DNA of 64,000 nt from an uncultured Candidatus Saccharibacteria bacterium. GTDB lineage: Bacteria > Patescibacteriota > Andersenbacteria > UBA10190. Positions 17,639 to 35,374 of this stretch are shown here, piece after piece. The position numbers were made by a program, and so were the translations under genes. Positions within the stretch are counted from its first letter, which is position 1. Every line of letters starts with the position of its first letter. The DNA lies in contig CAZSUC010000001.1 in assembly GCA_964610055.1 (NCBI GenBank), forward strand, positions 431,912-495,911. The letters are read 5' to 3'. The notes below the pieces were generated by a model. It ran no database searches and had not been told where the DNA came from. It was given only the letters and a program-made list of their open reading frames with translations.

Positions 17639-18445
17639 TTAATTAACTTTGTTAGTACATCCAGCGTCAATTAGTTGTTGCTGATATTGAGCTCTGTATT
17701 GAAATAGCGCAATTTGCTCCTCGGCACTCGAACTAAACTGATTACTATGAGAGGCGAGAAATTCATTCCTTAGGTCATACCATTCGCCAGCAGCAGCGTC
17801 GCATGCTTGCCGGTGCTTAAGTTCAAGCGCCGCAATGTCTGCATCATACTTAGTCTTTTCCTCTGCCTGCTTGTTCAACTCTTCTTGGTGTGCATTTAAT
17901 TTATCCATACACTCTTGCGCAGTAATATAGTAATAATTCGTGCCAACATGACAACTCATCTTCATTGGCGTGTATGCTGGTACATCAACTGGCTCGTCGG
18001 TTGGCGTAGCTTTAGGCGTAGCTTTTGCTGCCTTAGCTTGCTTTGCGTATAAGGCATCACATTCCGTTGTCCAAACAACCTGCCATTTCCCAGAAGCAAC
18101 TTCGCATTCTGTTTTTGTGCCAGCGCATTCACTTTGTTTGATGGCTAGTGTGCCTACATGAGGATATTCACAATTCACAATCGGGTCAGCATCTACAATG
18201 GGTGATGATTTGCTGGTTTTGGCACTAAGTACCGCTGGATTTGATGTGGATTTTGTTGGGAAAGACGGGCTAATGCTTATAGTGGGTGCAATTGAAGGAG
18301 CTATAGGGACGGTTGCTATAGCTTCGCTCTTCACATTCAATTGTTGCTCAATTCTGTTATTTACCACATTACCAACACCAAAAATTAGACCTCCCGTAAT
18401 AGTACAGGCCAACACCGTTCCAATCATATTACTATGCAGCATCAT
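17639..18445 (-). CDS. hypothetical Cys-rich secreted/membrane-anchored protein
   Basis: 268 aa; N-terminal TM, Pro/Ser/Thr-rich linker, 8 Cys in C-terminal half. Confidence 0.4.
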   Translation of the reverse strand: MMLHSNMIGTVLACTITGGLIFGVGNVVNNRIEQQLNVKSEAIATVPIAPSIAPTISISPSFPTKSTSNPAVLSAKTSKSSPIVDADPIVNCEYPHVGTLAIKQSECAGTKTECEVASGKWQVVWTTECDALYAKQAKAAKATPKATPTDEPVDVPAYTPMKMSCHVGTNYYYITAQECMDKLNAHQEELNKQAEEKTKYDADIAALELKHRQACDAAAGEWYDLRNEFLASHSNQFSSSAEEQIALFQYRAQYQQQLIDAGCTNKVN

Positions 18446-18446
18446 A

Positions 18447-19157
18447 CTAATGCGATTGCAAGTAGCCGACCAAGCTGTAGGTATTAATACCAGAGGAGAG
18501 AAATGAGTTTGTTGTTAGATAACCAATAAAGGTGTTGCCAAGAAAAATTCTAGGTGGAGTAGATGTGTAGTTATTGAATGGGCTTTGTGATGAGTAAGCC
18601 CCACCATATCGACCATATTCATTGAAGATGCTTTTTGAGGAGTATTTACTTCCATAGGTTCCGTACGAATTAATAATAGAATTAGAGCTGTACTGATTCG
18701 AGGAAATAAGCCCTAGATATGTGCCATCATTGGCAATAAGCACGCCTATCCCATCAAGTTGAACAAATACATCAGAAAGTGTTAGTAATGGAGCAACACT
18801 TGCCACAGTTGAAGTACTGTTAGTTTTAGGGGTAACGCTTACGGCTTTCTTAGCGCTAGTATCTGGCATTGTAAGGCCTTTAGCCTTCTGAAACGCCATA
18901 GCCCCCTTCAAGGCTTCTTCTGTCTTTTTGTCGGTTCTAGCTCGCTTCTTCCAATATTCGCTTTCCATCGCATTTATTTTTTTACTAAAAACCTCACCAA
19001 AAATACGCTCAACAACTAATGGCACGTTTTTGTTGGGAATCAAATCCGAATCTTGTTGCGTTGCCGCAAGTCCATCTATAGGCCAAACAAACATCAACAA
19101 ACCAGTTGCTAATATTATAAATACGCCTTTTCTAAAATCTGTATTTAGTGGATTCAT
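18447..19157 (-). CDS. hypothetical secreted protein with Tyr/Gly/Ser short repeats
   Basis: 236 aa; signal peptide; C-terminal repeats NSYGTYGSKYSSKSIFNEYGRYGGAYSSQSPFNNY. Confidence 0.4.
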   Translation of the reverse strand: MNPLNTDFRKGVFIILATGLLMFVWPIDGLAATQQDSDLIPNKNVPLVVERIFGEVFSKKINAMESEYWKKRARTDKKTEEALKGAMAFQKAKGLTMPDTSAKKAVSVTPKTNSTSTVASVAPLLTLSDVFVQLDGIGVLIANDGTYLGLISSNQYSSNSIINSYGTYGSKYSSKSIFNEYGRYGGAYSSQSPFNNYTSTPPRIFLGNTFIGYLTTNSFLSSGINTYSLVGYLQSH

Positions 19158-19261
19158 GGTAATTTAACTGGTCTATTTAGATACTTTTGGTATACCACTC
19201 TTAGAGAAAAGCTACAAGCTGTATGTAGACCGTATGTAGCACAAGGAAGACGCTTAAATTA

Positions 19262-19465
19262 ATGACCGACATACGAACTAAGTTTGGTAAACGAATCCAG
19301 AAGCTACGTCTTTCGCGAGGTATATCGCAAGAAAAGCTTGCTCACTCCGTAGGCGTACATCGAACCTACATGGGATTCGTGGAGCGTGGCGAACGAAACC
19401 CCACTCTGACCAAAATTGAACGCATAGCTAAAACCCTTGATGTTTCGATACGGGATTTATTTTAG
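19262..19465 (+). CDS. XRE-family HTH transcriptional regulator (Cro/CI-like)
   Basis: 67 aa; LRLSRGISQEKLAHSVGVHRTYMGFVERGERNPTLTKIERIAKTL HTH_3 pattern; RBS AAGGAAG. Confidence 0.85.
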   Translation: MTDIRTKFGKRIQKLRLSRGISQEKLAHSVGVHRTYMGFVERGERNPTLTKIERIAKTLDVSIRDLF

Positions 19466-19819
19466 CGTCCAATAACAAACTTACGCCTAATTGCTCAGAA
19501 GGCTATCATCTATTTTGATCATGGTGCCAAAAAAGACTTGAGAATTGATTCCTCTGTTTCTAATAAGTTTGAGCCAGAAAAAACGGCGTACAATATGTAC
19601 AAAATAGCGAATCTAGAAAAATCATGGGACCTAAGTCCGGATCAGTTCGCCACCTTGGTTTCGAACCAAAAAAGAGATACCAGGAGCGGAAAATAAGAGG
19701 GTCTTGAGAGGTGTTTAGGACGGACTTTCGAACCGAAAATGAGACAGTTTGAGACACTATAAAAAAGAGGGTGTTTCGTGTCTCATTTATTGGACTTTGC
19801 AAATATTTTGTGGCCTAAC

Positions 19820-20146
19820 CTACTTTGATCTAGGCGAACAAACAAACCAATCTTGGTTCTTCGGGTTTACCCGCTCAAACTCAATTCCATTCCATTCATA
19901 AAGCAAGCAATACCAGGATTCATCAGCATGTAAACTACTCACATCACGAGCAATTACATCATCGCTTAGCTTTTCAAACTTTCGCTCCTCACCATTTAGT
20001 AAAGTGTAATCCGTTACTTCAACCTTAAAGGCAATTTCAATTCCCCCCTTCGCTTCATTTGAGTATATCCCTCCTTTACGGATCATGATGCTGGGTTCTC
20101 CTGTCGACCAATTGAATTTCTCGTCTTTATCCATAGCACTACTCAA
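19820..20146 (-). CDS. hypothetical protein, last gene of TIR operon
   Basis: 108 aa; start overlaps stop of TIR gene (ATGA); no recognisable domain. Confidence 0.45.
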   Translation of the reverse strand: MSSAMDKDEKFNWSTGEPSIMIRKGGIYSNEAKGGIEIAFKVEVTDYTLLNGEERKFEKLSDDVIARDVSSLHADESWYCLLYEWNGIEFERVNPKNQDWFVCSPRSK

Positions 20147-21123
20147 TTACCCTCATATTCACGCTCAATATGCTCAACCAAGTTCTCCCACAACAACTCA
20201 AGTAGCTCAGAGGTAGTCAACAAGACCTTACCAACGCCTACTGGCTTTAGTAAACTCACATCCATCAAGTTAATAACATATGAATCCTTTTCTTGACTCC
20301 ACTCAATTCCACCAAACGCATGCATTGCTTTGCGATCAAAACGCCGATCAGTCCACTGATAGAACGATATGTCATCATCACCAGTCATCCCACCAAGCCA
20401 GATAGCAAGATTGTAAATTTTCTTATTTCCACTTCTAACACGAACAATCCGCTCTCCATTACGATTAACTAACGAAACTTGAATACCTCTATCCTTAAGC
20501 AACTCCCCTCGCTTAACTAGCTCATCGACAAGAGAATCTACAACATAATCTGGGTCACTAGATGGATCATGTTCAATCGTTGGGATCCGCGGCAACCTAA
20601 TATTAACAGCGGGAGACACGGTCTGGGGTACTGACTCAACAACAACTTCACCACTAGGCGGCTGCACTTTCGCTGCTATACTTTGAGCTAACTCCTGAGG
20701 CGTAATTCTATTATTTCGCGCGTCGAGGTACTTAGTAGTTGGGTTTAACTGCTCTGGTAGCTCATCTCCTTGCAGCATAACTGGTAGAATGTAATCTCTC
20801 TTTCCACTTAAAACGCCCTGCGATAGCGCACTCTCTAACTCATGCGTTGTAAATGCCTTCTGTTGATAGATATCAGTAACAAAGATGACACAATAACTAG
20901 CACGACCTTTCCCAAAAATATTTTGTAGATACCCCGGCAAGCTATGGCCCCACATTTCCGTCTCTATATCTGGATCACGATCGTAAAATACAGAAACGCC
21001 TCTCTTCCGTAACTCACTATACACAGCTTCTACATATTCACGATCTTCACCTGCATAAGACAGCGCAACAGAATAAGTCGCTTTCTCTTCATTGGTACTG
21101 CTTTGTTCGTGCTTATTAACCAT
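20143..21123 (-). CDS. TIR-domain protein with ~170-aa C-terminal domain of unknown function
   Basis: N-terminal YSVALSYAGEDREYVEAVYSELRKRGVSVFYD and SYCVIFVTDIYQQKAFTTHELESAL match TIR motifs including the catalytic Glu position. Confidence 0.7.
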   Translation of the reverse strand: MVNKHEQSSTNEEKATYSVALSYAGEDREYVEAVYSELRKRGVSVFYDRDPDIETEMWGHSLPGYLQNIFGKGRASYCVIFVTDIYQQKAFTTHELESALSQGVLSGKRDYILPVMLQGDELPEQLNPTTKYLDARNNRITPQELAQSIAAKVQPPSGEVVVESVPQTVSPAVNIRLPRIPTIEHDPSSDPDYVVDSLVDELVKRGELLKDRGIQVSLVNRNGERIVRVRSGNKKIYNLAIWLGGMTGDDDISFYQWTDRRFDRKAMHAFGGIEWSQEKDSYVINLMDVSLLKPVGVGKVLLTTSELLELLWENLVEHIEREYEGN

Positions 21124-21167
21124 GACAACACATTATGCCACGACAGTATCAGAAAGTGAACACTACT

Positions 21168-22919
21168 TTAAGATGATGTATCGACCGTAATTCCATCTTC
21201 AACCCAAGGGAATTCAAATTCCACATCTATTCTTGCCTTCTTGGGATACTTCTTCAGAAAATTCTCATTTTCATCCACTAGATAGATGGTGCAGTAATCT
21301 GATCCATCGACACGTTTAAGCTTTCGACCATTCAGGACACCCTTCCGCTCCAACGCCTTTCTCGTCGATGGATGAACACTATAGTCATAATTCGTTTGCC
21401 ATTCAGTAAACCAGGTATCCTCGTTATCGCTGTGTAGTGAGGGGATAATGCCTTCCTTAATGTTACGCCAACAGTCAGCGCAGCGAAGTCCATCAAGATT
21501 CCACCATGCTTTACTGCCAGGCATATTCTCACCACAAATACCACAGGTATACATACCACCCTCACTATCTTCTAAAAAGAATCCATCCGGCTCTTTCTCA
21601 AGTCTGCGCTTGCGTGCGTTCTCGATACCTTCAAACTCACCAGACATTTTAGCTAATTGCACCCAGTTGTTGTTGGCATGCTTTCGCTTCATCTCTTCCG
21701 TTATTTTCGCAGCTGGCTTCTTTGGTTGTTCTTCTGTATATAGCTCCATTAAGTCCTCTTCTCGTTCATAGCCACGAATACGTCCAGATAAATATCCGAG
21801 GCGGTAAGAGATATGACCAGACAAGAGTCGCCAGTTTGTATCCTTGAGAGTTTCCTTGATAAGCTGTCGTAACTCATATTCACTGGCGCGGGTACTACGG
21901 TTAGGGTCAGCATCCTGAACACTGAATGGAAGAATGAAATTCATACCATCCTCTGGCTTTCCAAGCGAGAATTCCATGTACTGCGCTTTTTCGAGAGGCT
22001 TAATGAGCTTCTTCTTAAGATCGGCGACCTTAATTTTCTTAAGCTTTGACACTTCAGCATACGCCTGACCCTCATATTTCTCTCGCTCTTCCTTCAGAAC
22101 AACTGAAGCGACTTCAAGTGCTTCTCGTTGATCAAGGGCGGCTTTGCCCTGTTCTTCGGTAAGACAGAATAGGTGACGATATTTTTTAAGTAGTGCCTCA
22201 TCCTTTTTCTTCTCTTTTTCCTTTTCAGCTTCAAATTCTGAGAAGTCATCTATTTCAGTAGCTGAATATCCACATGCTTTACATGCACTTGTAGTAGTAA
22301 CAACATCACCCTTTCTTTTAGATGTTACGGTTATTTCTTTCCCACACTCGGGACATAGGTCTGGCTCTGGCTTCCACTCCTTACCATTCTCAAAGATTGC
22401 TTTTCGTTTTTTGCAATCGGGACAGGCAAAAAAGAACAGCATCTTCGATGGCTTATCATTAATCCCAGTTCGAAGACTCTTAAAGGTGGCGTGCATAAGA
22501 ACACCACACTGACATTGAATATCCTGAGGTGGTGGAGTGTTATCGTATTTATTTTGAAGCTTTTGATCTTTTTCTACCCACTCAGCTATTGTCTTTTCTT
22601 TCTCTTCATAGCGGCCGGTTAGAGTATAGAAGAGTTGATTGTAGAGCATTCGGTTAAGGTGGTTCTTTGTTTGGAGGGGCGTTTCTGTATTTCGAGAGTC
22701 TTTGACCATTTTTTGATACGTTTTCTGGTAGACATCTACTACATCCAGTGCTCGATGGATGGTTATGAGGTCGTAAAGATCAGTGTAGTGTTGCCCCGAC
22801 TTCAAATAGAGAGACTTTTGCATAGCCTCTAGAAGGCCCCTTTCCTTGAGAGCCTTAACCCCATCAGAAGCATGATTGCCAAAGAAATACCCGTAATGAT
22901 AAACGCCTCCTGAATCCAT
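21168..22919 (-). CDS. multi-zinc-ribbon coiled-coil protein of unknown function
   Basis: 583 aa; CxxC pairs QCQCG..CPDCK, CPECG..CKACG, CGICG..CADCW; Lys/Glu-rich coiled coil; alternative start MQKSL at 22823 lies 5 nt after upstream stop. Confidence 0.5.
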   Translation of the reverse strand: MDSGGVYHYGYFFGNHASDGVKALKERGLLEAMQKSLYLKSGQHYTDLYDLITIHRALDVVDVYQKTYQKMVKDSRNTETPLQTKNHLNRMLYNQLFYTLTGRYEEKEKTIAEWVEKDQKLQNKYDNTPPPQDIQCQCGVLMHATFKSLRTGINDKPSKMLFFFACPDCKKRKAIFENGKEWKPEPDLCPECGKEITVTSKRKGDVVTTTSACKACGYSATEIDDFSEFEAEKEKEKKKDEALLKKYRHLFCLTEEQGKAALDQREALEVASVVLKEEREKYEGQAYAEVSKLKKIKVADLKKKLIKPLEKAQYMEFSLGKPEDGMNFILPFSVQDADPNRSTRASEYELRQLIKETLKDTNWRLLSGHISYRLGYLSGRIRGYEREEDLMELYTEEQPKKPAAKITEEMKRKHANNNWVQLAKMSGEFEGIENARKRRLEKEPDGFFLEDSEGGMYTCGICGENMPGSKAWWNLDGLRCADCWRNIKEGIIPSLHSDNEDTWFTEWQTNYDYSVHPSTRKALERKGVLNGRKLKRVDGSDYCTIYLVDENENFLKKYPKKARIDVEFEFPWVEDGITVDTSS

Positions 22920-25384
22920 CGCGGCTTATAAACAAAAACAACTTCATGAGCTTCTCCTGGCACGTAAACTCCTCGAAATATACTATCCGTTCGATAAACA
23001 GGAACTTCATTCCCATCGACATACGCCTTCCATCCTGGGAAAAGCACGTCTCTCATTACAAGAAATCCGTCACCTTCATTCTTCACTTGTACAGCAACGG
23101 TATTGCGATTGTCCTGGACGCCTAGAACTTCACCAGTGGCTGCAAAGTCCATATTTTCTGAAACACTAGCTACTGCAAAGTTGATATCCTGAGAGTCAAT
23201 ATCTAGTAAGATATTTTTCTGTTCTTTACTACTATCTGCAGATGCCTGTACATGCCTAACAAAATGCACTCTAGGAAATGCTTCTTTGTTCTCATAAGTA
23301 CGAATAATCTTATCCCCCAATGGAATTTCTGAGACCTCCTCAAAATCTAGAAGATTATCTGCAAAACGATAAGGTGGGTATAAGCCTATTACATGCGTGA
23401 TAGGGAAACGATTTACCAACGAACGGTTATCTTGCCAAGCTGAACCACTGCCACGATCACCAAGAAATTCTAAATACTTACTCACGTCGTATAGTGGAAG
23501 TGGTCCCGTCCATTGCGCAGTGTTAATTCCAAATCCAGCCGGTGTATAAGGCGCTAATAGTTCATAGCCTTTTATTAGATCATTCGATACTACCAACTGG
23601 AAGGATATGTCAGTCGTGTTATCTCCTGCGATTACAGCTTCACAGTCATCAACGTTCCTACAGGAAAAAAGTTGCCCAGTAGGATTGTACTGATTGCTAT
23701 CAGGGTTTGTATGTATGTATAAACGAGAAGCTTGTTGCTTTTGAGATATATCTGAAGTGATCTCAAAATACATTGCCTGATCCTGAATGTTATCCAATTG
23801 CTCAAAAGAAAACGTACTCCATTCACCATCTCTAATATTTTGAGTAGATATTGAGCTCTTTCTTAGTAAATCACCTCTATCGTCAAATAGCTTCAAGGTA
23901 ATTTCTCCAACCACCGAGGACTCAGAAAGGCGAAGATTAATACCATCAATTTGATTAAAGGGGGAGGAAAAACTTTGCCGATATGCATACTGTGGGACAA
24001 TAGGATTCCAAATCATAATCCCGAAGTTGTTGTGTGGAGCAATTGCCGATAAACGCTCTTTGGAAAAAACTCGTACAAATGAATTTTGACTATTAAAAAA
24101 CTTTGCTACTTCTGGTTCTTGAGTAGCCTGCCAAGACACTTCATCGTGCCATCGCCAAGAAACATAAAAAACAGGAACAATGCTTCCTATAAGAATTATC
24201 ACTGCGAGAACAGTCTTCATTCTTCTGCTATGAGCAAGGTTCACAATCCAGTGAAATCCGATAGCAGAAAGCAAAATTAAACCAATATTAGAAAATAGAA
24301 AGAAACGCGCGGGCGAATTAAAATATCTCCACCCCATATCAACTAACCACACATATACAGCCGAATCTTTTCCGAGGGCTAACACGAAACCAAGATTTGT
24401 AATCACTACAGAAAAAAGCCAAAGGAATCGAAAACTTTTTCTACCAACTAAAAGACCAAACAAAGAGAGAAGTAGCGTTATTGGACCCAAGTAGCTTGAT
24501 AGTTCAGCTTCATTTTTAGGCCCCATATATTCGTCACCATGACCAAACGGATGTGGAATCACTAGCCCCTTTAACGCCTCAATAGGAAAACTAAAATCCA
24601 ATAACTCCTCATCCGTGCTAACACCTTGTGCCCGATCAGTAAAAGGAATGACTTCAACTATTGGCAACCAGTAGAAAGATGTTAATCCAATGACGATGAA
24701 TACACTTATCAGAATCAATAGCGCCCGCTTCCATTTCTTGTAATCAGTGACAAGAAGACACAAAACGAATATCGCTTGTAAAACGAAGATGATGACAGCC
24801 ATCTGAGGATGGCCAACTAATACACAAAGGGAACTACTCAAAATCCAATAAATTAATATACGGACTCCCCCTGTTTTCAAAAACATTTGTAGAAAAAGAA
24901 ATAAAAGTGGCACCCAGGTAAAAGGCAAAATGAGATTAATCATTTCATACTTACCTACAAAGGCTGCCCCTAGTGGCAGCAACAACGCTGCCATCCCGGA
25001 TGCCATAGTCTGAACTTTGTTAAATCTCAAAAAAGAAAAAACACCAATCGCTGCTAATAAGCTGTGAATAAGCATTGAAATATTAAGCGTCCAAACAGCT
25101 GGGAAAAACTGGCGTAAAGCCATATGCAGTGGATAAAAGAAACCTAATTGACCGGTCGCAAGTAATGGGTAGCCACCAGCTAACTCGGGTGACCACAAAG
25201 GCAACTCTCCGGACCTTTGAATGACACCATATAGGTTTTCTAACGCCGTCGTAGTGGTAACGAGGTCGTTATTAAACCACAATCCCCGAAAAACCCACTT
25301 TGTAATAAAGAAAAGGCAGATAATTAAGGCAATAACGCCAAAACTTCTAGTATCAAAATTTAACTGAAAGTTTATTTTCCTCAT
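22829..25384 (-). CDS. YfhO-like polytopic membrane protein (putative GT-C type glycosyltransferase)
   Basis: 851 aa; ~12 TM helices in first ~420 aa then large extracytoplasmic C-terminal domain, the YfhO family architecture. Confidence 0.4.
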   Translation of the reverse strand: MRKINFQLNFDTRSFGVIALIICLFFITKWVFRGLWFNNDLVTTTTALENLYGVIQRSGELPLWSPELAGGYPLLATGQLGFFYPLHMALRQFFPAVWTLNISMLIHSLLAAIGVFSFLRFNKVQTMASGMAALLLPLGAAFVGKYEMINLILPFTWVPLLFLFLQMFLKTGGVRILIYWILSSSLCVLVGHPQMAVIIFVLQAIFVLCLLVTDYKKWKRALLILISVFIVIGLTSFYWLPIVEVIPFTDRAQGVSTDEELLDFSFPIEALKGLVIPHPFGHGDEYMGPKNEAELSSYLGPITLLLSLFGLLVGRKSFRFLWLFSVVITNLGFVLALGKDSAVYVWLVDMGWRYFNSPARFFLFSNIGLILLSAIGFHWIVNLAHSRRMKTVLAVIILIGSIVPVFYVSWRWHDEVSWQATQEPEVAKFFNSQNSFVRVFSKERLSAIAPHNNFGIMIWNPIVPQYAYRQSFSSPFNQIDGINLRLSESSVVGEITLKLFDDRGDLLRKSSISTQNIRDGEWSTFSFEQLDNIQDQAMYFEITSDISQKQQASRLYIHTNPDSNQYNPTGQLFSCRNVDDCEAVIAGDNTTDISFQLVVSNDLIKGYELLAPYTPAGFGINTAQWTGPLPLYDVSKYLEFLGDRGSGSAWQDNRSLVNRFPITHVIGLYPPYRFADNLLDFEEVSEIPLGDKIIRTYENKEAFPRVHFVRHVQASADSSKEQKNILLDIDSQDINFAVASVSENMDFAATGEVLGVQDNRNTVAVQVKNEGDGFLVMRDVLFPGWKAYVDGNEVPVYRTDSIFRGVYVPGEAHEVVFVYKPRWIQEAFIITGISLAIMLLMGLRLSRKGAF

Positions 25385-25530
25385 TTCCTGGTACGGATTT
25401 AGAGGCGAGGGCTATATAAACACAAAGCCCGCCGCCAGCTCGCAATCTTTCGATCGCGCATACCCCTTTCGGGGTATGACCGTACCAGGGCTGCTGAACG
25501 ACGGGTTCAGTATCCTGGTACGGGGTTTCA
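25385..25530 (-). promoter_or_regulatory. structured 5' leader RNA with alternative-pairing elements (candidate translational RNA switch)
   Basis: CCTGGTACGG at 25387-25396 and 25514-25523 and its complement at 25478-25487 (inside GACCGTACCAGG, 25478-25489); perfect hairpins CATACCCC-ttt-CGGGGTATG and CTGAAC-gacgg-GTTCAG; GC-rich vs surroundings; the copy at 25387 abuts the AGGAA-ATG of the downstream gene. Confidence 0.45.
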
Positions 25531-25624
25531 ATGCCATGCCTCGAAAATTGAGGTTTAGGCAAATATTCAGTTATGTATCCATTTTTGCTCTAAACAGGCT
25601 TTAAATCAACTTTTCTAAATACCA

Positions 25625-25652
25625 TTGACGATGAGAGCGTTAAGAGTAAAAT
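25625..25652 (+). promoter_or_regulatory. sigma70-like promoter (TTGACG-16-TAAAAT)
   Basis: TTGACG at 25625-25630, TAAAAT at 25647-25652. Confidence 0.45.
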
Positions 25653-25701
25653 TTACTTAGAAGCAACGCTCGTTTAAAGAATAATAAAAAAGGATACTTC
25701 A

Positions 25702-25758
25702 ATGTCTGCAAAAGACGTAGTTGTATTCCCCTACTCCGACGGAGGCGTGCTCCGATAA
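25702..25758 (+). CDS. 18-codon leader ORF (MSAKDVVVFPYSDGGVLR)
   Basis: ATG with AAGGA RBS 6 nt upstream, between promoter and a strong terminator hairpin. Confidence 0.3.
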   Translation: MSAKDVVVFPYSDGGVLR

Positions 25759-25806
25759 CAAATGTAGAGTAGAGCTGGCAGTTAGCCTCGCGGGCGTAAC
25801 AGCGTA

Positions 25807-25876
25807 GAACTGTTCAGTGAAATCGAAGGTGGTTATTTTAACCATTTATTTTCGATGTCACTGAACAGTTTTTTGT
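25807..25876 (+). terminator. long intrinsic terminator / attenuator hairpin
   Basis: GAACTGTTCAGTGAAATCGAA ... TTCGATGTCACTGAACAGTT (about 20-bp stem, 1 mismatch) followed by TTTTTT. Confidence 0.55.
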
Positions 25877-25947
25877 TGGAGATAAGAAAATAAATAACAC
25901 CTTTGCTATCATCGAGCGTGGCTTTATTTAATCCTTCAAATAAAGTC

Positions 25948-27291
25948 ATGAAAAAGACTCCATACAAAAACCAACAAAATATCGACGTCGAGTACGTCAA
26001 CACAAAGAATCTAAAATCAGCGTCATATAACCCTCGGCATTGGAACGACGACGCAAGGAAGCAGCTCAAAGAGAGTGTGCGGCGATTCGGTCTCGTTGAT
26101 CCGATAATCTGCAATAGTGCTCCTTCTCGGAAAAACACAGTCATTGGTGGGCATTTTCGCTTGGCTGTTGCTAAAGAGCTTGGCTTCAAAGAAGTCCCCG
26201 TCGTTTACGTTAATATCCCTACTCTTGAGCGGGAAAAGGAACTTAATCTTCGACTCAATAAGAATCAAGGTGAATGGGATTTTGACCTATTGGCTGAATT
26301 CGATGAGAAATTACTCGCCGATGTCGGATTTAATTCCGAGGAGCTCGATGAAGTATTTGCTGAAATTGAAACGCCAGAAGAATTCGACCTTGAGAAAGAA
26401 CTTCAAAAACTTGATATCAAAACTGTTGAACTCAAGAAAGGTGACATCGTGCAATTAGGTGACAGTCGGATGCTAGTTGGAGACTCGACTATTGAGGCCG
26501 ATTTCATAAAGCTCATGAATGGTGAACAGGCGGACATGTGTCTGACCGATCCCCCATATTTACTAGATTATTTAAACGCCAAGCGTCATGGCAAAGCAGT
26601 AACAGGATTTGGGGCAAAGCGTGATCGACGGTATCTCGAAACGGATGTTTTACCAGATAACTTCACTGAGCTATGGATGGGTAATATTGCCAAGGTACAA
26701 AAAACAAACTTCAGTATTATCGTCTACGAGAATTGGAAGAATCTGCGCGTTATTTGGGAAGAAATGGAAAAGCACTGGAAAGTTAAGAACATGCTGGTCT
26801 GGCATCTGCCGAATCGCCATCAAGGCTTCTCCGCTAAGCACAAATTCTTCAGCAAGCATGACATCGCAATGGTAGGTGCAAGCAAGAATTCCGATGTCAC
26901 TTACAACCATTCCGAAGAAGCAGATGGTCTTCAAGAAGAATATGAGACTGCTTTGTATGCCATAGCCGGAAAACCACACTGGGAGGGATACAAGAAGGGC
27001 AAGAAAGTGATGCCAACTGACTTCATTGAATTCAATGCTTCTGATGAGAAGCATTCTGGGCAGGGCGTTGTGTTCGGTACCAAGCCCATCGAAATCCTCA
27101 TTCCCTACATCAAGGTACTCACGAAACGTGGCGACTTAATCGTGGAGCCATTCGGAGGATCAGGAAGTACATTGATCGCTGCCACGAAAATGAAGCGACG
27201 CTGCTACATCATGGAAAAATCTCCTGTATACGCGGAAGTGATTCGTAAGCGCTGGGAGAAGCTAACTGGGGAGAAAGGAGTGGTTGTATGA
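25948..27291 (+). CDS. ParB-like nuclease domain / DNA methyltransferase fusion (beta-class N6A or N4C)
   Basis: N-terminal ParB motif GGHFRLAVAKELGFKEVPVVYV; DPPY motif IV (CLTDPPYLL) preceding motif I (VEPFGGSGSTLIAA); ORF track begins at TTG 25903, ATG at 25948 more likely. Confidence 0.8.
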   Translation: MKKTPYKNQQNIDVEYVNTKNLKSASYNPRHWNDDARKQLKESVRRFGLVDPIICNSAPSRKNTVIGGHFRLAVAKELGFKEVPVVYVNIPTLEREKELNLRLNKNQGEWDFDLLAEFDEKLLADVGFNSEELDEVFAEIETPEEFDLEKELQKLDIKTVELKKGDIVQLGDSRMLVGDSTIEADFIKLMNGEQADMCLTDPPYLLDYLNAKRHGKAVTGFGAKRDRRYLETDVLPDNFTELWMGNIAKVQKTNFSIIVYENWKNLRVIWEEMEKHWKVKNMLVWHLPNRHQGFSAKHKFFSKHDIAMVGASKNSDVTYNHSEEADGLQEEYETALYAIAGKPHWEGYKKGKKVMPTDFIEFNASDEKHSGQGVVFGTKPIEILIPYIKVLTKRGDLIVEPFGGSGSTLIAATKMKRRCYIMEKSPVYAEVIRKRWEKLTGEKGVVV

Positions 27292-27722
27292 GCAAGGCAC
27301 TAGCCATAAAGCAGAGTAAGAAAAAAGAAGCATTACTTGAACAGCTCAGGAAAGTACCGATTGTGCAACTTGCCTGCGATCGCACTGACGTAAGTCGAGC
27401 AACGTTCTATCGCTGGAAGAAAAGTGATAAGGATTTTGCCGAAGCCGTTGATGAAGCTCTGCTATCAGGATCTTCGCTTATCAACGACATGGCGGAATCA
27501 AAGCTCATTGCCGCTATCAAAGAGGGCAACATGACTGGGATTATCTATTGGCTGAAACATCATCATCCGGCATATACCACCCGAGTAGAGCTGTCTGTGG
27601 GACCGAAGCAAAACGATGAGCTTACCGCTGAACAGCAGCAAGTAGTTCAAGAAGCGCTAGCAAAAGCAGCCCTTATTGAACAAGGGGAAATTAATTCACT
27701 AAATGAAACCTATGAAAAATAA
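27288..27722 (+). CDS. putative terminase small subunit (HTH)
   Basis: 144 aa; HTH RATFYRWKK; start overlaps methyltransferase stop (ATGA) and its end overlaps the large terminase start. Confidence 0.5.
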   Translation: MSKALAIKQSKKKEALLEQLRKVPIVQLACDRTDVSRATFYRWKKSDKDFAEAVDEALLSGSSLINDMAESKLIAAIKEGNMTGIIYWLKHHHPAYTTRVELSVGPKQNDELTAEQQQVVQEALAKAALIEQGEINSLNETYEK

Positions 27723-29151
27723 TATTCTATCGCCTGAAGTATTAGGTCACTTAATGCGTGACCGCATGGCACGACAAGCAGTAGCCTCTCATAACCATCT
27801 TCTGTTCTTCCATATCTACTTATCCCGATACGTAAAGTACGACACTGCAGAATTTCAACGTAAGCTATTCAAGCTCACCGAGGACTCGAGTATCCGACAT
27901 GCAGCTATCGTTGCATTTCGAGGGTCTGCCAAGACAACCATCATGACGCTTTCATACCCCCTTTGGGCTATCCTCGGTGTTCAGCAGCGTAAATTCGTCA
28001 TGCTTTTAAGCCAGACGCAGGGACAGGCTCAACAAATGCTTGTGAATCTGAAGCGTGAGATTGAGAATAATGAAATATTGCGGAATGACTTCGGTGCTCT
28101 TGAGCACGCAACCGATGAGTGGGGTCGAGAATCACTCGTTATCAAAAAATACGGTGCCAAGATTATGGCGGCTTCGAGCGAAACGAGTGTACGAGGCGTA
28201 CGGTTCGGAGAACACCGACCGGATCTCATCATCTGCGATGACGTTGAAGATTTGCAGTCAACCGCTACCCGAGAGGGACGCAATAAGACATATAACTGGC
28301 TCATGGGAGATATCATCCCAGCTGGAGACCGCAACACCCGAGTTGTTGTTATCGGAAATCTACTGCATGAAGACTCACTCCTCATGCGATTAAAAGAAGA
28401 TATGGATCGTGACCGACTTGATGGAGCCTTTCTGCAATTCCCTCTTTTGGATGAGAATGATAAGCCGCTCTGGCCAGGCAAGTTCCCTGACCAAGAAAGC
28501 ATTGATCGTCTACGTAAGACTGTACCAAGCCTACCAGCCTGGCATCGTGAATACATGCTTAACATTGTTCCAAATCAAGACCAGATTGTGCTTCAAGAGT
28601 GGATTAAATATTACGATAACCTTCCGCCAGAGGAGCGCTACAAAACTGTCGTGGCCGTTGATCTCGCAATCGGACTTGAGAAAAACAATGATTACACAGC
28701 AATCCTAAGTGCTCGCATTTATGGGTATGAAGATAAGATGCAGATATTTATTCTGCCAAATATCATCAACAAACGAATGAGCTTCCCAGACCAGCGCCTT
28801 ACGCTACAATCTGTTGCAGATAGCTTGGGGCATCCCAAGATATACATTGAAGATGTCGCCTATCAAAAATCGTTAATCCAGCAATTGAAAGCCGACGGGT
28901 ACAGTGTTGATGGCGCAAAGGTATTCGGACAAGACAAGTTCTCACGTCTCGAAACCGTAACTCATCTTTTGCAAAACGGTCAGGTGTTCTTCCCTCGAGA
29001 ACGTTCCAAGGAGCTTGTTAATCAGCTAACGGGCTTTGGAATTGAGAAACACGATGACCTAGCAGATGCCTTTTCAATTCTTCTGCAAAAAGCGATCGAG
29101 AATAACCGACGGCGAGGGCGAGTATGGGCACATAAGCCAAAGGGATTCTGA
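27703..29151 (+). CDS. phage terminase large subunit
   Basis: 482 aa; ATPase Walker A-like AFRGSAKTT, Walker B LIICDDVED; C-terminal RNaseH-like nuclease (VAVDLAIG...DYTAI). Confidence 0.8.
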   Translation: MKPMKNNILSPEVLGHLMRDRMARQAVASHNHLLFFHIYLSRYVKYDTAEFQRKLFKLTEDSSIRHAAIVAFRGSAKTTIMTLSYPLWAILGVQQRKFVMLLSQTQGQAQQMLVNLKREIENNEILRNDFGALEHATDEWGRESLVIKKYGAKIMAASSETSVRGVRFGEHRPDLIICDDVEDLQSTATREGRNKTYNWLMGDIIPAGDRNTRVVVIGNLLHEDSLLMRLKEDMDRDRLDGAFLQFPLLDENDKPLWPGKFPDQESIDRLRKTVPSLPAWHREYMLNIVPNQDQIVLQEWIKYYDNLPPEERYKTVVAVDLAIGLEKNNDYTAILSARIYGYEDKMQIFILPNIINKRMSFPDQRLTLQSVADSLGHPKIYIEDVAYQKSLIQQLKADGYSVDGAKVFGQDKFSRLETVTHLLQNGQVFFPRERSKELVNQLTGFGIEKHDDLADAFSILLQKAIENNRRRGRVWAHKPKGF

Positions 29152-29159
29152 TGTGCCAA

Positions 29160-30305
29160 CTAGACAAGGACATCATTGGAAGATTTTTCGCCAAAGAATT
29201 CACTAATCATCTCGTTGTATCTAAAGAAAGCACCAAGTAGTTGGAATGCATAGTCTGGTTGGATAATTCCATCCAATCGAAATAGCTTAATCTTTGTCGG
29301 CTTTCCCCTGCTCCTACTAAGAAGAGGATTCCACTCATCCCTAAATCTCTCATTGTGAACTGCTCGGCTATACGCAAAAACAGATCCATCAAAATGAGTA
29401 AACTTTTGCTGAGACCTATCCCATTCTAAGTGTGCAAACCGGTGCAGTACAACCTTGTCAGTAATTCCAGCACTTCCATTAATTGGCAAAATTTCTTCGA
29501 CAGAAATCGATTTCTTAGGTCCTGTCGACTGATTTTTTATATCAAAGACTGTAGCGTTAATCGGGTAGGTATCGTCCAGTATTTTCTTCTGACTATTTTC
29601 CATCCTCTTGTGCAGTGTCGTTCCTACATAATTTTGATCATTCAAATTTTCAATTGAAAAGTAAGGACCATGCCAATAGTCAGCCTCTACATACTCTAAA
29701 TAGTTCTTCGAATCAGTCATTCGGCTTGGATCAACAGCTAACTTAAGCTCAATATCATTATCATCATGAGCCTTCATCAGCAGGCTAGTTGTATCAGTAA
29801 ACTTTCCCTGAAAAAACCTTCGCAAAAATGGATGATAGTAGATAAGCTTATCTCCAAAAATAATTCCCTGTCTTCTTAAATCAAACAAACTAGCTTCTAC
29901 CAAATTATCACCATCAAACTCCAATTTCTCTTTCTTCAAAAAATCTACCACCAAACCACTGCCACCACGTTCAATATAAAAATTGATTCTCGGGAATAGT
30001 TTATCAACGTCATAGGTTATACATGCAAAAACAATATCTTCAATATTTTCAGAGCCCATTGGAAATAGCAGAAGTTTAAGATCAGGATATTTTTCCATTA
30101 AATCTTGAATATCTGCTTTTTTAACTCTCGTCTTATAAATAGCATCGAGCTTATCGTATAGGTGACGTAGCTGACTGCTATTTAGATAAAAATTTAAACG
30201 AGTAGGAATTCCATCCCTATGAAAAAGCTCTTGGGAAAAGTTGTTGAGCAATTCCTCCTCTGAGCTATTACCACCAACAAAATTGAGAATCGTCTTTTCT
30301 TGCAT
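29160..30305 (-). CDS. hypothetical protein (island cargo, unknown function)
   Basis: 381-aa ORF convergent with terminase large subunit; no recognisable motifs. Confidence 0.45.
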   Translation of the reverse strand: MQEKTILNFVGGNSSEEELLNNFSQELFHRDGIPTRLNFYLNSSQLRHLYDKLDAIYKTRVKKADIQDLMEKYPDLKLLLFPMGSENIEDIVFACITYDVDKLFPRINFYIERGGSGLVVDFLKKEKLEFDGDNLVEASLFDLRRQGIIFGDKLIYYHPFLRRFFQGKFTDTTSLLMKAHDDNDIELKLAVDPSRMTDSKNYLEYVEADYWHGPYFSIENLNDQNYVGTTLHKRMENSQKKILDDTYPINATVFDIKNQSTGPKKSISVEEILPINGSAGITDKVVLHRFAHLEWDRSQQKFTHFDGSVFAYSRAVHNERFRDEWNPLLSRSRGKPTKIKLFRLDGIIQPDYAFQLLGAFFRYNEMISEFFGEKSSNDVLV

Positions 30306-30377
30306 ATAAATAGCATAACATTTGAGGCCAGTTACCTACTTCCCTTGTAGAAAACCTTGCGGCACTGTTGACCTGCT

Positions 30378-31661
30378 ATGAGCGACATCCGCTACTGCCT
30401 ATATGCCAGAAAATCGTCAGAACGGGACGAACTTCAAGCCCTTTCAGTGGATTCCCAAGTAAAAGAGATGCAGGACATGGCTAGACGAGATGGGATTAAC
30501 GTGGTGGAGATATATCGAGAAAGTCACTCAGCTAAAGACTCGGGGCAACGTCCGGTATTCATGAAGCTAATTGAAGATATTAGGAGTAGCAAATTCAATG
30601 GAATTCTGACATGGGCGCCAGACCGCTTAAGCAGAAACGCTGGTGACCTGGGATCACTAGTTGATCTCATGGATCAAAAGAAGCTTGAAGAAATCCGCAC
30701 TCACGGTCAGACATTCCATAACTCGCCGAATGAAAAATTCTTACTCATGATCCTGTGTAGCCAAGCCAAGCTTGAGAACGACAATCGAGGACTAAATGTG
30801 AAGCGAGGCCTGCGCGCTAAGTGTGAGATGGGGTATAGGCCAGGGGTATCGCCGCTTGGGTATCTCAACAATAAATTTGCGAAGAAGGGCGAGAAGAAAG
30901 TTACACTTGATCCCGCTCGCGCGCCCATTATTAGGGAGATGTTCGAGAAGGTCGCATATGAAGGCTACAGCGGCCATCAAATACTAAGATGGATTAACAA
31001 TGAGACCGACTTTACTACCAGATCAGGAAAACAAATGGTGCTAAGCACCGTCTATCTCCTACTTCGCGATACTTACTACTATGGGAAATTTGAATACCCG
31101 AAGGGTAGCGGAAATTGGTACAAAGTTAATCACAAATCAATCATCACTAAGAAGATATTTGATCTGGTACAAGAAAATATCGTGGCTACAAAAAAGCGTA
31201 AGCCCGGAACACTGGAGTTCGACTTCACTCGGCTCATAACTTGCGGTGAGTGTGGCTCTGGAATATCAGCGGAGGAGAAATACAAACAACTTAAAAACGG
31301 ATCAGTAAATAGATATGTGTATTACCGATGCAGTAAGGGCAAGCGAGTAGAATGTCACGAACCGTACGTAAGAGAAGAAAACCTTGTTGAGCAGCTATTA
31401 CAGCTGATAGACAATCTGGATATGGATAAAATGCTTATTAGTAATAAGCTAGCCAAAGAATTAGAAAAGTACCAAAAGTTCGCATCTGGAGTGCTGCAGG
31501 TAGAAGAAATTAGTAGTACGCCAAAAGTAGATATTCGCAGTTATGCGAAGTATGTTTTAAAAGAGGGCAGTCGAAGCGAGAAAAGAGACATCTTATCTTG
31601 TCTGCAAACAAAATTAATTCTTACCAATCAAAAAATTTCTCTTAGAGCGCATAGCAACTAG
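30378..31661 (+). CDS. large serine recombinase
   Basis: 427 aa; resolvase catalytic domain YCLYARKSS...Q; recombinase domain; zinc ribbon CGECGSG...YYRCSKG. Confidence 0.9.
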   Translation: MSDIRYCLYARKSSERDELQALSVDSQVKEMQDMARRDGINVVEIYRESHSAKDSGQRPVFMKLIEDIRSSKFNGILTWAPDRLSRNAGDLGSLVDLMDQKKLEEIRTHGQTFHNSPNEKFLLMILCSQAKLENDNRGLNVKRGLRAKCEMGYRPGVSPLGYLNNKFAKKGEKKVTLDPARAPIIREMFEKVAYEGYSGHQILRWINNETDFTTRSGKQMVLSTVYLLLRDTYYYGKFEYPKGSGNWYKVNHKSIITKKIFDLVQENIVATKKRKPGTLEFDFTRLITCGECGSGISAEEKYKQLKNGSVNRYVYYRCSKGKRVECHEPYVREENLVEQLLQLIDNLDMDKMLISNKLAKELEKYQKFASGVLQVEEISSTPKVDIRSYAKYVLKEGSRSEKRDILSCLQTKLILTNQKISLRAHSN

Positions 31662-31678
31662 TCTAAGTAGGTACCTGC

Positions 31679-34600
31679 CTAAGCACTGCATATAACATCA
31701 AGATCTGTTCCAATAGTTTCTTTCAAGTAACTATGCGCAGCTGCAAGTACGGCTGCTTGCTCCGGGGTATGCGAAGCAAGCGAAAGCCCTGGTTGGACTA
31801 TAACTATCTCTGACCTTATCTCTTTAAACCTACTTACCTTTACATAGCGGTTAAGGTCTGAGGTTTGACCTACCAAAAAACGAGTTGCTCTGACCACTTT
31901 TATCAATCTCTTCTCTCTTCCCAAAACATGGCGGCATAAATCTCTAAATTTCCATTTCCACTTTGCTGACCGAATAGCCTGAGAACACACTTCAACTACA
32001 TCATTTACTCGTTCACCGGGGGTACTTCCCTTTGTAAATTTGCAATGAACCAATGTGAGTCTAATATGATCATCCTCTTCCTTTAAACAAACAAGATCAG
32101 CCGCCTCTCCTGAAGCGTCGTCATTAAATACCACGTCAAAGCCCCCTTCAATGAAATGCTGCGCAGCACGCCACTGAATCGAATCCAAATGCTCAGCGCC
32201 CTCTTTCCACATTGATTCCTTGCTAATGTCCACACCTTCCCAATCCCAAACCTCAAATCTTTCTACGGGAAAAGTGAGATCTTGTGTGCTCTGAGGGCGA
32301 ATCAGAAGGTTGCCATCCAGTTCTGATAGATCCATAAAACGTATTAGTGGAGGATAGTTAGAAAAATACTCTTCAACTTTCACTTCTAAGGAGCCGACTC
32401 GAATTTTTAGTTCCATCGAAGATGAGCGAGTAACCCGAAAGCCCTCTATACCCCCAACAGTTAGTTTAAAAATCCCCCAAACATCTCCTGTACTTGAACG
32501 AAGTTGGAAATCAACCTCACTAGTTGTTGCATCAGAGTGTAGTATTTCGATATCAAACATAGCAATCGATAGCTCATCATCTCCCTTTAGCAGTGTCACG
32601 CGCTCTTCCGACTGACGTATCAACTCTACCGGCCAGTCGATGCTTAATATTTGTGCGTCTGGAAGAGCGGTAACCTCTTCCGGAATCAAAACGTTTTCAA
32701 TAATTTTTTTTGTATCAATAGTATCGTCTTTCAACTTCCTACCAACAGCTTCACACCATCTTACAAGCTCGGGTACAGTCCCGGGCTCACGGGCCCAAAT
32801 ACGGCCCTTATATGAACACCCTATTGTTACCGGCCCACCATTTTCCCAGCCTGTTCCACTCAGGTTTGATTTTATAGATCCAGCTCTTTCTGAAATACTT
32901 AGAGCTTCTGCAACATCAGAACCTGTATACAACGCGTACCTTAAATTACGTCGCCCATGCTTCCGAACTCCCACATTTTGAAAAATCAGGCGATTAATAT
33001 TGCCAAGCGACCGAAAAATTATATCTCCTGATATTATCTGTGTACCACCGACTGCTAATGCAACCTTTTCATGATTTGAAGATTTGTCGCTCGATGACAG
33101 AAAAAGCAACCCTTGATCCTGATCATAGTGAAGAACAAAAAGATCCCATATGCGATCACGAATCTTTTTTGAGCGGGTCCACCGGATCGGTGGCTCCAGC
33201 CGAGTTACAAAATAAAGAGTATTTGTTTCCTCATGAAGCCATACCCTATGCACATTGAGACCTTTTGGTATTCCTTTAAAAAACCTTTTTGGGTTAAAAG
33301 ATGCTGCTTCATAGACAAGGGTACTGAAAGTTGGCCTTAGAAGATGGTGCGATATCTCAAGCTCCTCATCACCGTCAACTTCATCAAGTCTCTGTGACGA
33401 GTTAAGAAATTCAACCAAAGATGCGTGAGACCGAGCAGCATCAGAACTAAGCTCACTTAGAAGGTGGTTCCAGTCAGCATCTTCACTGTAAAGTCTTTCT
33501 AAAGCAGAAGACACACCTTGCTCGGCAATATTCGCAATCACAGTTGCATCACCAATTGACTCAGCAGAACTTCGAGTAAATCTTCCGGTAAATTGCAGAA
33601 GTATTGCTAAACTTTTGTGCGTATCATGAATAGCGGCAACTTTCAGTTGAGGAAGATCAAAACCTTCTCCTAGCATATTAACACACACGACTATTCGACT
33701 CCCTCCAGACCTTAACGTGTCTATCAATCCATCGGTATCAGCTAAATCAGAGTGAACAAGAACAGGGTTAAGATCGGGAGCAATTTCTTGATAAATTTGG
33801 CAAACATAGCTAGCCCTGCTTATGTTTGCACATCTTGCCATCATTATGTGGTTTTTCCCTGAGGCGACATCTTCACGTAAACGATCCACTGCAGCTTTTG
33901 CAATTGCCTGATCGGCTGCCTCTTGGTCAATCTCATAAACTGATTCAAAAGAAATCTTTTTGAAATATCCATCACGCTGTGCCAATTGAAGTGGGTATTC
34001 ATAAATCACTTTCCCATCAACCAACTTCCCATCTCGCCGATATGGTGTGGCAGTAAACTGTAAAACTTTGCACGCAGAAAAATTTTCACGGAAAGATGCC
34101 CAACCCTTTGCTGCGACGTGATGAGCCTCGTCAACAATTAAAGTATCAACTACTTCCGCAACTGCAGGTAGCAGACTAGATGTAACACTTCCAGTTAAAG
34201 CGCTCATGGTAGCTACTACTACGTTGCAATCCTCGAATATGCTGACTTCATCCTTAGTCCGGGGGCGCCTGGTAACTATTCCCACAATAGGGTTTTTTGC
34301 TCCAGGCATTAGGTTCCCAAGTGATCGCAGTAAGCCAAGGGTAAGAAATTTTTTAGCCGTTTGATCGCGCAGCACTCTAGACGGAACCACAACTAGTAAC
34401 CTCCCAGAGGCATATGCGATCAAGGTGGCAAGCATTGTCTCGGTTTTGCCAGTACCTGTGGGCATTACGATGGTAGCTGGCTGATTATTCAAGCTCCAGT
34501 GTGAACCGATTGCATGCAGTCCTCCTATTTGAGGTGGCCTTAAACCCTTCGATACAACATTACCAGCTTTATCCCTCTCCTCAGCATGAAAACTAAACTT

Positions 34601-34999: not shown

Positions 35000-35127
35000 T
35001 TGTTAACCCCATACAATAGTATATCCACGACACTTAGGCACGCCTGGACTTAGGGGCACTTCTGTGCTCCATATGATAATTGAGACCTTGGATAGAGTCC
35101 GGTTGACTCGAACTAAATTGGCTTGCT

Positions 35128-35198
35128 CCGGGACAGGGATTCGAACCCCAATTTTTGGGACCAGAACCCAACGTCCTGCCGTTAGACGATCCCGGAAT
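35128..35198 (-). tRNA. tRNA-Gln (anticodon CUG)
   Basis: Cloverleaf derived by hand: acceptor tccggga/tcccgga, anticodon arm ttggg-ttCTGgt-cccaa, T-arm ggggTTCGAATccct. Confidence 0.7.
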
Positions 35199-35276
35199 AA
35201 GTATTCATAAACTACCTTAAAAGTATAAAGTAAGCAACTAGTCAAATCAGGTCATTCGGGGTACAGTAAAGCCCGA

Positions 35277-35350
<74 letters not shown>

Positions 35351-35374
35351 CTAGCATGTGGTATAATCAAGAAC

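Follow-up and report, generated by a model that had tools for sequence, protein, structure and literature searches.

TIR domains, and defence conferred by a single TIR gene, are already known, and a worked example is SpbK (YddK) of Bacillus subtilis ICEBs1, a single TIR protein carried on a mobile element, whose NADase is activated by a phage portal protein via its non-TIR domain (PMC11984713). The SpbK mutant E192Q loses defence, and phage Nip binds the SpbK TIR domain (PMC11984713). Here we describe a 326-aa protein, TIR-CTD, that joins an N-terminal TIR domain to a C-terminal domain (CTD) and is encoded in a 64,000-nt stretch of DNA, hereafter the window, from an uncultured Candidatus Saccharibacteria bacterium (assembly GCA_964610055.1, contig CAZSUC010000001.1, positions 431,912-495,911 of the forward strand; GTDB lineage Bacteria; Patescibacteriota; Andersenbacteria; UBA10190). 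Judged by its domains, its relatives and their genomic settings, TIR-CTD is most likely an NAD+-destroying anti-phage "suicide switch".

TIR-CTD resembles SpbK in being one protein of ~270-330 aa that consists of a TIR domain and one small non-catalytic domain, in being accessory cargo on an integrative element, and in its conserved catalytic Glu. The two differ in domain order: in SpbK the sensor precedes the TIR domain (TIR at 116-267, PMC11984713), whereas here the TIR domain (residues 19-138) precedes the CTD (170-326). By this order, TIR-CTD falls outside the SpbK family, which has an N-terminal sensor and a C-terminal TIR domain; in sequence, the PADLOC scan listed no SpbK match, the presence of an SpbK model in that PADLOC release being unconfirmed.

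With modest confidence, we favour the reading that TIR-CTD is a self-contained TIR NADase of the SpbK kind, encoded by a single gene and acting through abortive infection. In the proposed scheme, the TIR domain would be an NAD+ glycohydrolase with Glu95 as its catalytic residue, held inactive until the CTD of ~155 aa binds a trigger from the phage, most likely one of its proteins; this binding would make the TIR domains oligomerise, NAD+ would be depleted and the infection would abort. The scheme would match that of SpbK of ICEBs1, but with the domains in reverse order, and the zinc-ribbon and 104-aa proteins encoded next to TIR-CTD would be neighbours only, not needed partners.

The TIR domain, the C-terminal domain and their family

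An earlier reading of this DNA, made without database searches and called here the original prediction, had proposed an N-terminal TIR domain with a motif, FTTHELESAL, that retains the catalytic Glu. Both points held: Pfam TIR_2 was matched with an E value of 2.2e-14 (54.4 bits vs a cut-off of 28), and the first Glu of the motif (within AFTTHELESAL) is E95, which aligns with the Glu of the YEL/REL motif in the solved bacterial TIR proteins 7uxr and 4lzp. This residue is invariant across eight full-length relatives, and the full-length relatives of TIR-CTD share 28-60% identity with it. Profile score and catalytic Glu thus both place the domain in the bacterial TIR NADase superfamily.

The region that follows had been called unassignable, and indeed residues ~170-326 have no match in Pfam, NCBIfam, PADLOC or PHROGs. 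Modelled alone with AlphaFold 2 (AF2), the CTD gave a confident model (predicted local distance difference test score, pLDDT, 83; predicted template-modelling score, pTM, 0.77), in which a helix is followed by an antiparallel sheet and a further helix; this model predicts a frataxin-like α/β sandwich. A CTD profile searched against 1.84 billion representative proteins yielded 169 clusters at 50% identity, 111 of them at E ≤ 1e-10. Nearly all of these clusters are fused to a TIR domain, mostly in proteins of ~300 aa with the CTD at the C-terminus, and because most members have this length, the two domains make up the whole protein. Scanning 104 members of the CTD family gave matches to TIR_2 in 81, TIR in 19 and ThsB_TIR in 2, and to Mrr_cat, cytidine deaminase, GGDEF/Cas10-palm, PNP_UDP_1 and an EAD7/NB-ARC/TPR set in one member each, all counted per protein. 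One member, P0157 (1120 aa), has TPR-like repeats ahead of its TIR-CTD end. We read the CTD as a shared sensor or adaptor domain that may be combined with interchangeable effector domains; such a pattern, in which one domain stays constant and the enzymatic head is now and then exchanged, is typical of conflict systems.

Close relatives of the window protein (P0002-P0005, from the loci L003, L004, L006 and L088; 46-60% identity) carry an extra N-terminal domain of ~125 aa, which is missing in the window protein and in the ~300-aa majority of the family. Distant relatives (~30% identity, ~308 aa) share the arrangement of the window protein, and the unit conserved across them is the two-domain TIR-CTD protein alone. 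The similarity in length between the closest homologs (436-455 aa) and the sum of 326 and 108 aa raised the idea that the 108-aa open reading frame (ORF) downstream is a split-off C-terminus; this was rejected because these homologs have their additional ~125 aa at the N-terminus and give no alignment with the 108-aa protein. A search of 50,697 deposited phage genomes found no full-length relative of TIR-CTD, the single match covering the TIR part only. The CTD and the TIR-then-CTD architecture are absent from Pfam, PADLOC 2.0, NCBIfam and PHROGs, and literature searches found no description of the family.

The genomic contexts of relatives are diverse. P0006, an actinobacterial homolog of ~300 aa, is encoded by the last gene of an HsdR-GmrSD-HsdM-HsdS operon (Type I restriction-modification (R-M)/GmrSD), and the P0003 gene follows a gene for a type IIG-like methylase. 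P0007 (L092) belongs to the same element type as the window protein, with a ParB-methylase that is 71% identical, TerS and TerL; its gene overlaps the end of a CI/LexA-like S24 repressor gene by 4 nt, a place where one would expect a gene that is active in the integrated state of the element, and a short zinc-ribbon variant is encoded two genes later. No ThsA-like, cyclase, SAVED or STING partner was found in these three contexts. The settings of the distant (~30% identity) relatives, with their differing neighbours, seem to point to defence, and a defence role for the window protein is likely because it is set in a mobile element rich in defence genes.

A role outside defence has also to be weighed, in which the TIR protein would serve the life cycle of the element or counter-defence, for example by degrading host immune nucleotides or NAD+-derived signals, or would act as a non-enzymatic scaffold. 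The gene does lie on a mobile element by packaging genes, and the phage genomes, having given no full-length relative, speak neither for nor against a phage-borne pattern. However, relatives sit in a chromosomal Type I R-M/GmrSD operon, the slots surrounding the window gene hold defence systems and not anti-defence genes, and the invariant catalytic Glu argues against a pure scaffold. We consider such roles hardly probable.

Matches to described defence systems were partial. Weaker PADLOC matches of the TIR part were to PDC-S66, RT-TIR and ThsB TIR models. The best of them was PDC-S66 (E 9.3e-13), which like TIR-CTD is a single TIR-containing protein; the match joins profile positions 137-240 of 282 to query residues 5-115, short of full length, and the TIR region lies in the C-terminal half of PDC-S66 whereas here it is N-terminal. 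A reverse transcriptase (RT) domain, as in retron-TIR systems, is absent, and the RT-TIR model NF042941 scored 45.7 bits vs a cut-off of 600, in a match confined to the TIR part. CBASS or Pycsar with a TIR effector does not fit either, with no adjacent cyclase, a CTD without SAVED or STING match, and a SAVED-TIR model that matched weakly (E 4e-4) in the TIR part only. The original prediction had seen no SIR2, SLOG, Macro, STING or SAVED partner, and Pfam and PADLOC scans of the neighbours agree; with no such partner present, the locus has no Thoeris, CBASS or Pycsar layout.

Thoeris deserves closer comparison. Like ThsB, TIR-CTD has a TIR domain with a conserved Glu, and ThsB proteins sense the phage capsid directly (PMC12578639). 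TIR-CTD might accordingly sense infection and make an ADP-ribose (ADPR)-derived signal as ThsB does, acting on an effector encoded elsewhere or unrecognised; the conserved catalytic Glu is needed for cyclase-type TIR chemistry too, and ThsB profiles match TIR-CTD (PADLOC ThsB1, E 4e-5) as well as the two family members mentioned above. These PADLOC matches are weak (E 4e-5 to 0.04) and restricted to the TIR core, and none of the matched profiles shows the CTD as a feature of ThsB. The genes of a Thoeris system normally lie side by side, yet no ThsA-type gene (SIR2-SLOG or Macro) is adjacent to TIR-CTD here or in any context examined, and neither the neighbours (Pfam, PADLOC) nor the homolog contexts contain a SIR2-SLOG or Macro/transmembrane (TM) domain. 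The neighbours of TIR-CTD are, moreover, not conserved between loci. Thoeris-like signalling therefore appears unlikely to us.

The neighbouring zinc-ribbon and small-protein genes

The original prediction had proposed a TIR defence operon of three genes, encoding the zinc-ribbon, TIR and 108-aa proteins, inside a mobile island. The TIR protein and its defence-rich mobile setting were borne out; the three genes as one dedicated unit were not. Such a system, with a zinc-ribbon sensor, a TIR enzyme and a small effector or regulator, would suit the co-directional arrangement of the genes, which are separated by gaps of 44 nt and 8 nt with no terminator predicted between them, in a promoter/terminator scan that gave fewer matches than shuffled sequence and is uninformative. 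It would also suit the presence of a zinc-ribbon gene directly before the TIR gene in the window, L004/5 and L006, of a remnant in L003 and of a short variant two genes past the TIR-CTD gene in L092, and the fact that the small protein follows the TIR gene in L088-90 as well. Against these arrangements stand the numbers of the two families, at least 339 zinc-ribbon homologs vs ~10 full-length TIR-CTD matches in the same database, and the lack of a TIR gene in all 80 representative zinc-ribbon loci of a scan with one genome per species. In other loci, unrelated genes come after the zinc-ribbon gene, stand-alone Shedu and Hhe among them, and TIR-CTD relatives without a detectable zinc-ribbon gene are found in L007 and in L088 (within its 4.5 kb). 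The gene following the TIR gene also varies between loci, encoding proteins of 104, 170, 50 or 140 aa, all unrelated. We regard a dedicated three-gene system as distinctly unlikely.

The zinc-ribbon homologs found in the database search are nearly all of ~550 aa, with 40-64% identity; few are named, and these come mostly from Patescibacteria, including Woesebacteria and Shapirobacteria. Twelve Cys are invariant across 17 homologs and form six pairs (positions 104, 134, 157, 181, 427 and 448), which suffice for three Cys4 sites. The predicted presence of at least three zinc ribbons thus stood, as did a Lys/Glu-rich helical stretch; the predicted length of 583 aa did not, and is replaced by 551 aa, since family N-termini and gene calls make Met33 (ATG 22821-22823), 5 nt past the stop of the upstream gene, the most likely start. 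An AF2 model of the protein reached pLDDT 84, and no informative fold or sequence relative was found. The comparison of loci shows that the protein is a core gene product of a widespread Patescibacteria mobile element and not a TIR-specific partner.

A shorter variant of the zinc-ribbon protein (397 aa in L092, 9384-10577) matches approximately the first 360-410 residues of the 551-aa family, without the C-terminal Cys4 region. It occurs among the loci L056-L087 (for example, L081 and L082) and in L092, mainly in genomes labelled Saccharibacteria. Some genomes have two zinc-ribbon loci, namely CAZBEF010000001.1 (L012, L017) and BOLA01000001.1 (L030, L050).

For the small gene, an ATGA overlap with the TIR gene had been described. 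This was wrong: the TIR stop codon is TGA at 20143-20145 and the 108-aa ORF begins with TTG, giving a TTGA overlap, and homologs and independent gene calls place the start of the gene at ATG 20132-20134, 8 nt past the TIR stop, for a protein of 104 aa. Its family comprises four homologs with 56-100% identity, and the protein has no family match in Pfam, PADLOC, PHROGs or NCBIfam and no match in the PDB. Of five distinct loci, two have the gene after the TIR gene, namely the window and L088-90, with a 50-aa gene lying between them in the latter. In L004/5, a homolog is located 6 kb upstream of the TIR gene; no homolog is present in the fetched parts of L003, L006 and L092. In L091, the homolog overlaps the end of an HsdM-like methylase gene, by Fic and RadC genes, on a 3.8-kb contig that contains no TIR gene. 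The small gene is real but an inconsistent neighbour of the TIR gene, and would not be a required partner.

These positions also bear on a toxin-antitoxin, addiction or self-immunity pair, in which TIR-CTD would be a toxin stabilising the element and the small protein would neutralise it, as phage Nip does with the SpbK TIR domain. Small TIR-binding inhibitors exist (PMC11984713). The small gene starts close behind the TIR gene (8 nt), and the two occur together in two loci with different upstream flanks (window, L088). But with four matches in the whole family, most TIR-CTD relatives would be without the small protein; its gene lies apart from the TIR gene in L004/5, is missing in L003, L006, L092 and L007, and also stands after the methylase gene in L091. 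We rate such a pair as very unlikely.

Other TIR-CTD genes are followed by genes for Cys-rich proteins (L004:9333-9845, L006:9344-9856 and L088:4014-4166). These proteins, of 170 aa with two N-terminal CxxC pairs or of 50 aa with two CxxC pairs, are unrelated to the 104-aa protein and have no PADLOC match.

Taken together, the three-gene, Thoeris-like, toxin-antitoxin and non-defence explanations are each weaker than the reading of TIR-CTD as a single-gene TIR NADase. Some points nevertheless weigh against that reading. The conserved catalytic Glu would fit a protein that makes a signal molecule just as well as one that depletes NAD+. The window protein is without the N-terminal domain of its closest relatives, and may be differently regulated or a reduced form. 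Finally, the TIR gene lies directly after a zinc-ribbon gene or its remnant in four of the five Patescibacteria-clade loci, and two genes apart in L092; a functional tie between the two genes thus keeps some residual probability.

The carrier element and its variable slots

Patescibacteria have tiny genomes, in which defence systems are few but densely packed (PMC12259885). Hotspots of P2/P4-type prophages and satellites have a conserved core flanking slots of changing content, including known defence systems (bioRxiv 10.1101/2021.01.21.427644), and the element carrying TIR-CTD is alike in this respect. It differs in its host phylum, Patescibacteria, and in its core, which consists of a large serine recombinase, TerL, TerS, a ParB-methylase and the zinc-ribbon protein (window ~19200-31700; L008-L087, L092 and L093). 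As the original prediction had noted, the setting is that of an island: XRE, TerS, TerL, ParB-methylase, large serine recombinase and helicase genes were all identified in the neighbourhood by Pfam and PHROGs.

We counted core genes near the zinc-ribbon gene in 86 fetched loci, six of which had been fetched through TIR homologs. ParB-methylase was found in 29, TerS in 24, TerL in 21, the large serine recombinase in 20 and XRE (within 10 kb) in 23; the module of ParB-methylase, TerS and TerL is also present in L092 and L093. In the usual layout, ParB-methylase, TerS, TerL and the recombinase are encoded on one strand, divergent from the zinc-ribbon gene.

Both regions flanking the zinc-ribbon gene are variable and rich in defence genes. 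The gene immediately downstream differs in nearly every locus and mostly belongs to a singleton family, XRE homologs forming the largest cluster, and the tightly coupled downstream genes are mostly unannotated. A scan of 43 proteins encoded downstream matched Shedu SduA in three and DUF5677 in three, with other matches to Hhe, Type I methylase, PDC-S37/DUF6119, PDC-S19, DUF3644, REase_MTES_1575 and nSTAND3; a few housekeeping genes among the 43 probably mark the host flank. On the other side, the interval between the ParB-methylase and zinc-ribbon genes ranges from 252 to 8693 bp and holds 89 ORFs in 75 clusters. Its cargo includes Type I and Type II methylases, two CBASS cyclases (E 3e-116), GajB, PbeA and a large protein of helicase type with matches to the models of Mokosh, Hhe and PDC-S37. 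With fixed core flanks and variable cargo that includes known defence systems, the element qualifies as a mobile-element defence hotspot. The TIR gene is therefore swappable cargo of this hotspot, in the slot between the zinc-ribbon and XRE genes.

No portal or capsid genes were found near TerL in the three loci examined (window, L092 and L093). L093 is the single IMG/VR contig with a zinc-ribbon gene, and its TerL gene is followed by methylase-like, ATPase-like and unknown genes; a full prophage was therefore rejected, there being no portal or capsid genes after TerL. The element could be satellite-like or a reduced prophage. A search for its ends gave no convincing direct repeats flanking the island, and literature searches found no description of this Patescibacteria element. 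Many element contigs are titled 'uncultured Gammaproteobacteria' or 'Pseudomonadales' (L010-L012, L017, L018, L020, L043, L046 and others), and single ones Methanobacterium and Nanoarchaeota; these titles probably stem from mistaken taxonomy or contaminated bins and not from the true host range.

A broader proposal, which we put forward tentatively and with more doubt than confidence, is that TIR-CTD founds a sizeable, unrecognised family in which TIR sensor and effector form a single chain (at least 169 clusters at 50% identity, in Patescibacteria and other, higher-G+C genomes) and the new frataxin-like CTD would be the phage sensor. The carrier would then be an undescribed, terminase-bearing, capsid-free integrative element and a major vehicle of defence islands in Patescibacteria, and the zinc-ribbon protein might be functionally tied to the adjoining cargo. 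The single-gene reading of TIR-CTD, if confirmed, would extend the one-protein TIR NADase defences exemplified by SpbK by a sensor domain and an architecture that are new, and would provide a compact family of ~300 aa in which to study the activation of TIR oligomerisation by a non-TIR domain. The element context may matter more: it has a fixed core and two highly variable slots containing Shedu, CBASS, R-M, Gabija-like and unknown genes, and these slots lend themselves to mining for new defence genes in a phylum not yet screenable experimentally; the carrier and its hotspots may be a more valuable lead than the TIR protein itself.

Gene layout of the window

The three ORFs at 19820-22919 are all on the minus strand, with the coordinates of the original prediction; these and the surrounding features are listed in Table 1.

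Table 1. Position and identification of the features in and around the TIR-CTD locus (coordinates of the window).
Feature	Position	Strand	Basis or remark
TIR-CTD protein, 326 aa, candidate defence gene	20143-21123	-	ORF; identical protein on other public contigs
TIR domain, residues 19-138, putative catalytic Glu95 at 20839-20841	20710-21069	-	Pfam TIR_2
C-terminal domain (CTD), residues 170-326, predicted α/β sandwich, proposed sensor or oligomerisation domain	20146-20616	-	
Zinc-ribbon protein, 551 aa from Met33 (ORF extends to 22919)	21168-22823	-	Mobile-element core gene
Small protein, 104 aa (108-aa ORF if from TTG 20146)	19820-20134	-	Four homologs
XRE/Cro-type helix-turn-helix (HTH) regulator, 67 aa	19262-19465	+	Pfam HTH_3, E 2.9e-15
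YfhO-like membrane protein, 851 aa	22829-25384	-	Pfam YfhO C-terminal, E 2.6e-6, just under cut-off
LOOT RNA (Rfam RF03000)	25441-25561	-	82.9 bits vs gathering score 46.4
ParB-N6/N4 DNA methylase	25903-27291	+	Pfam, PHROGs
TerS	27288-27722	+	Pfam, PHROGs
TerL	27703-29151	+	Pfam, PHROGs
Large serine recombinase, likely integrase of the element	30378-31661	+	Pfam Resolvase, Recombinase, Zn_ribbon_recom; PHROG integrase E 1e-65
ResIII/DEAD helicase, 1106 aa	31679-34999	-	Adjoins recombinase and two tRNA genes (35125-35351)

The XRE gene is convergent with the string of genes containing TIR-CTD and is a recurrent gene at that end of the element. Its product has an R-M 'control protein' (C-protein) as best PADLOC match (E 7.5e-22), and the gene is divergent from a pair of genes whose products have no annotation (18447-19157 and 17639-18445).

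In the window, the variable region between the ParB-methylase and zinc-ribbon genes is occupied by the YfhO-like gene and, just upstream of it, the LOOT RNA. The YfhO-like protein is found in none of the fetched zinc-ribbon loci except L001, a copy of the window's own locus. The LOOT RNA was considered as a feature of the element and rejected; because it was not found in seven other zinc-ribbon loci, it goes with the YfhO-like cargo and not with the element.

In the helicase, the ~600 C-terminal residues have no assignment. Weak PADLOC matches of this protein to PbeA (E 8e-15), HamB and DpdF suggest that it may be another defence gene.

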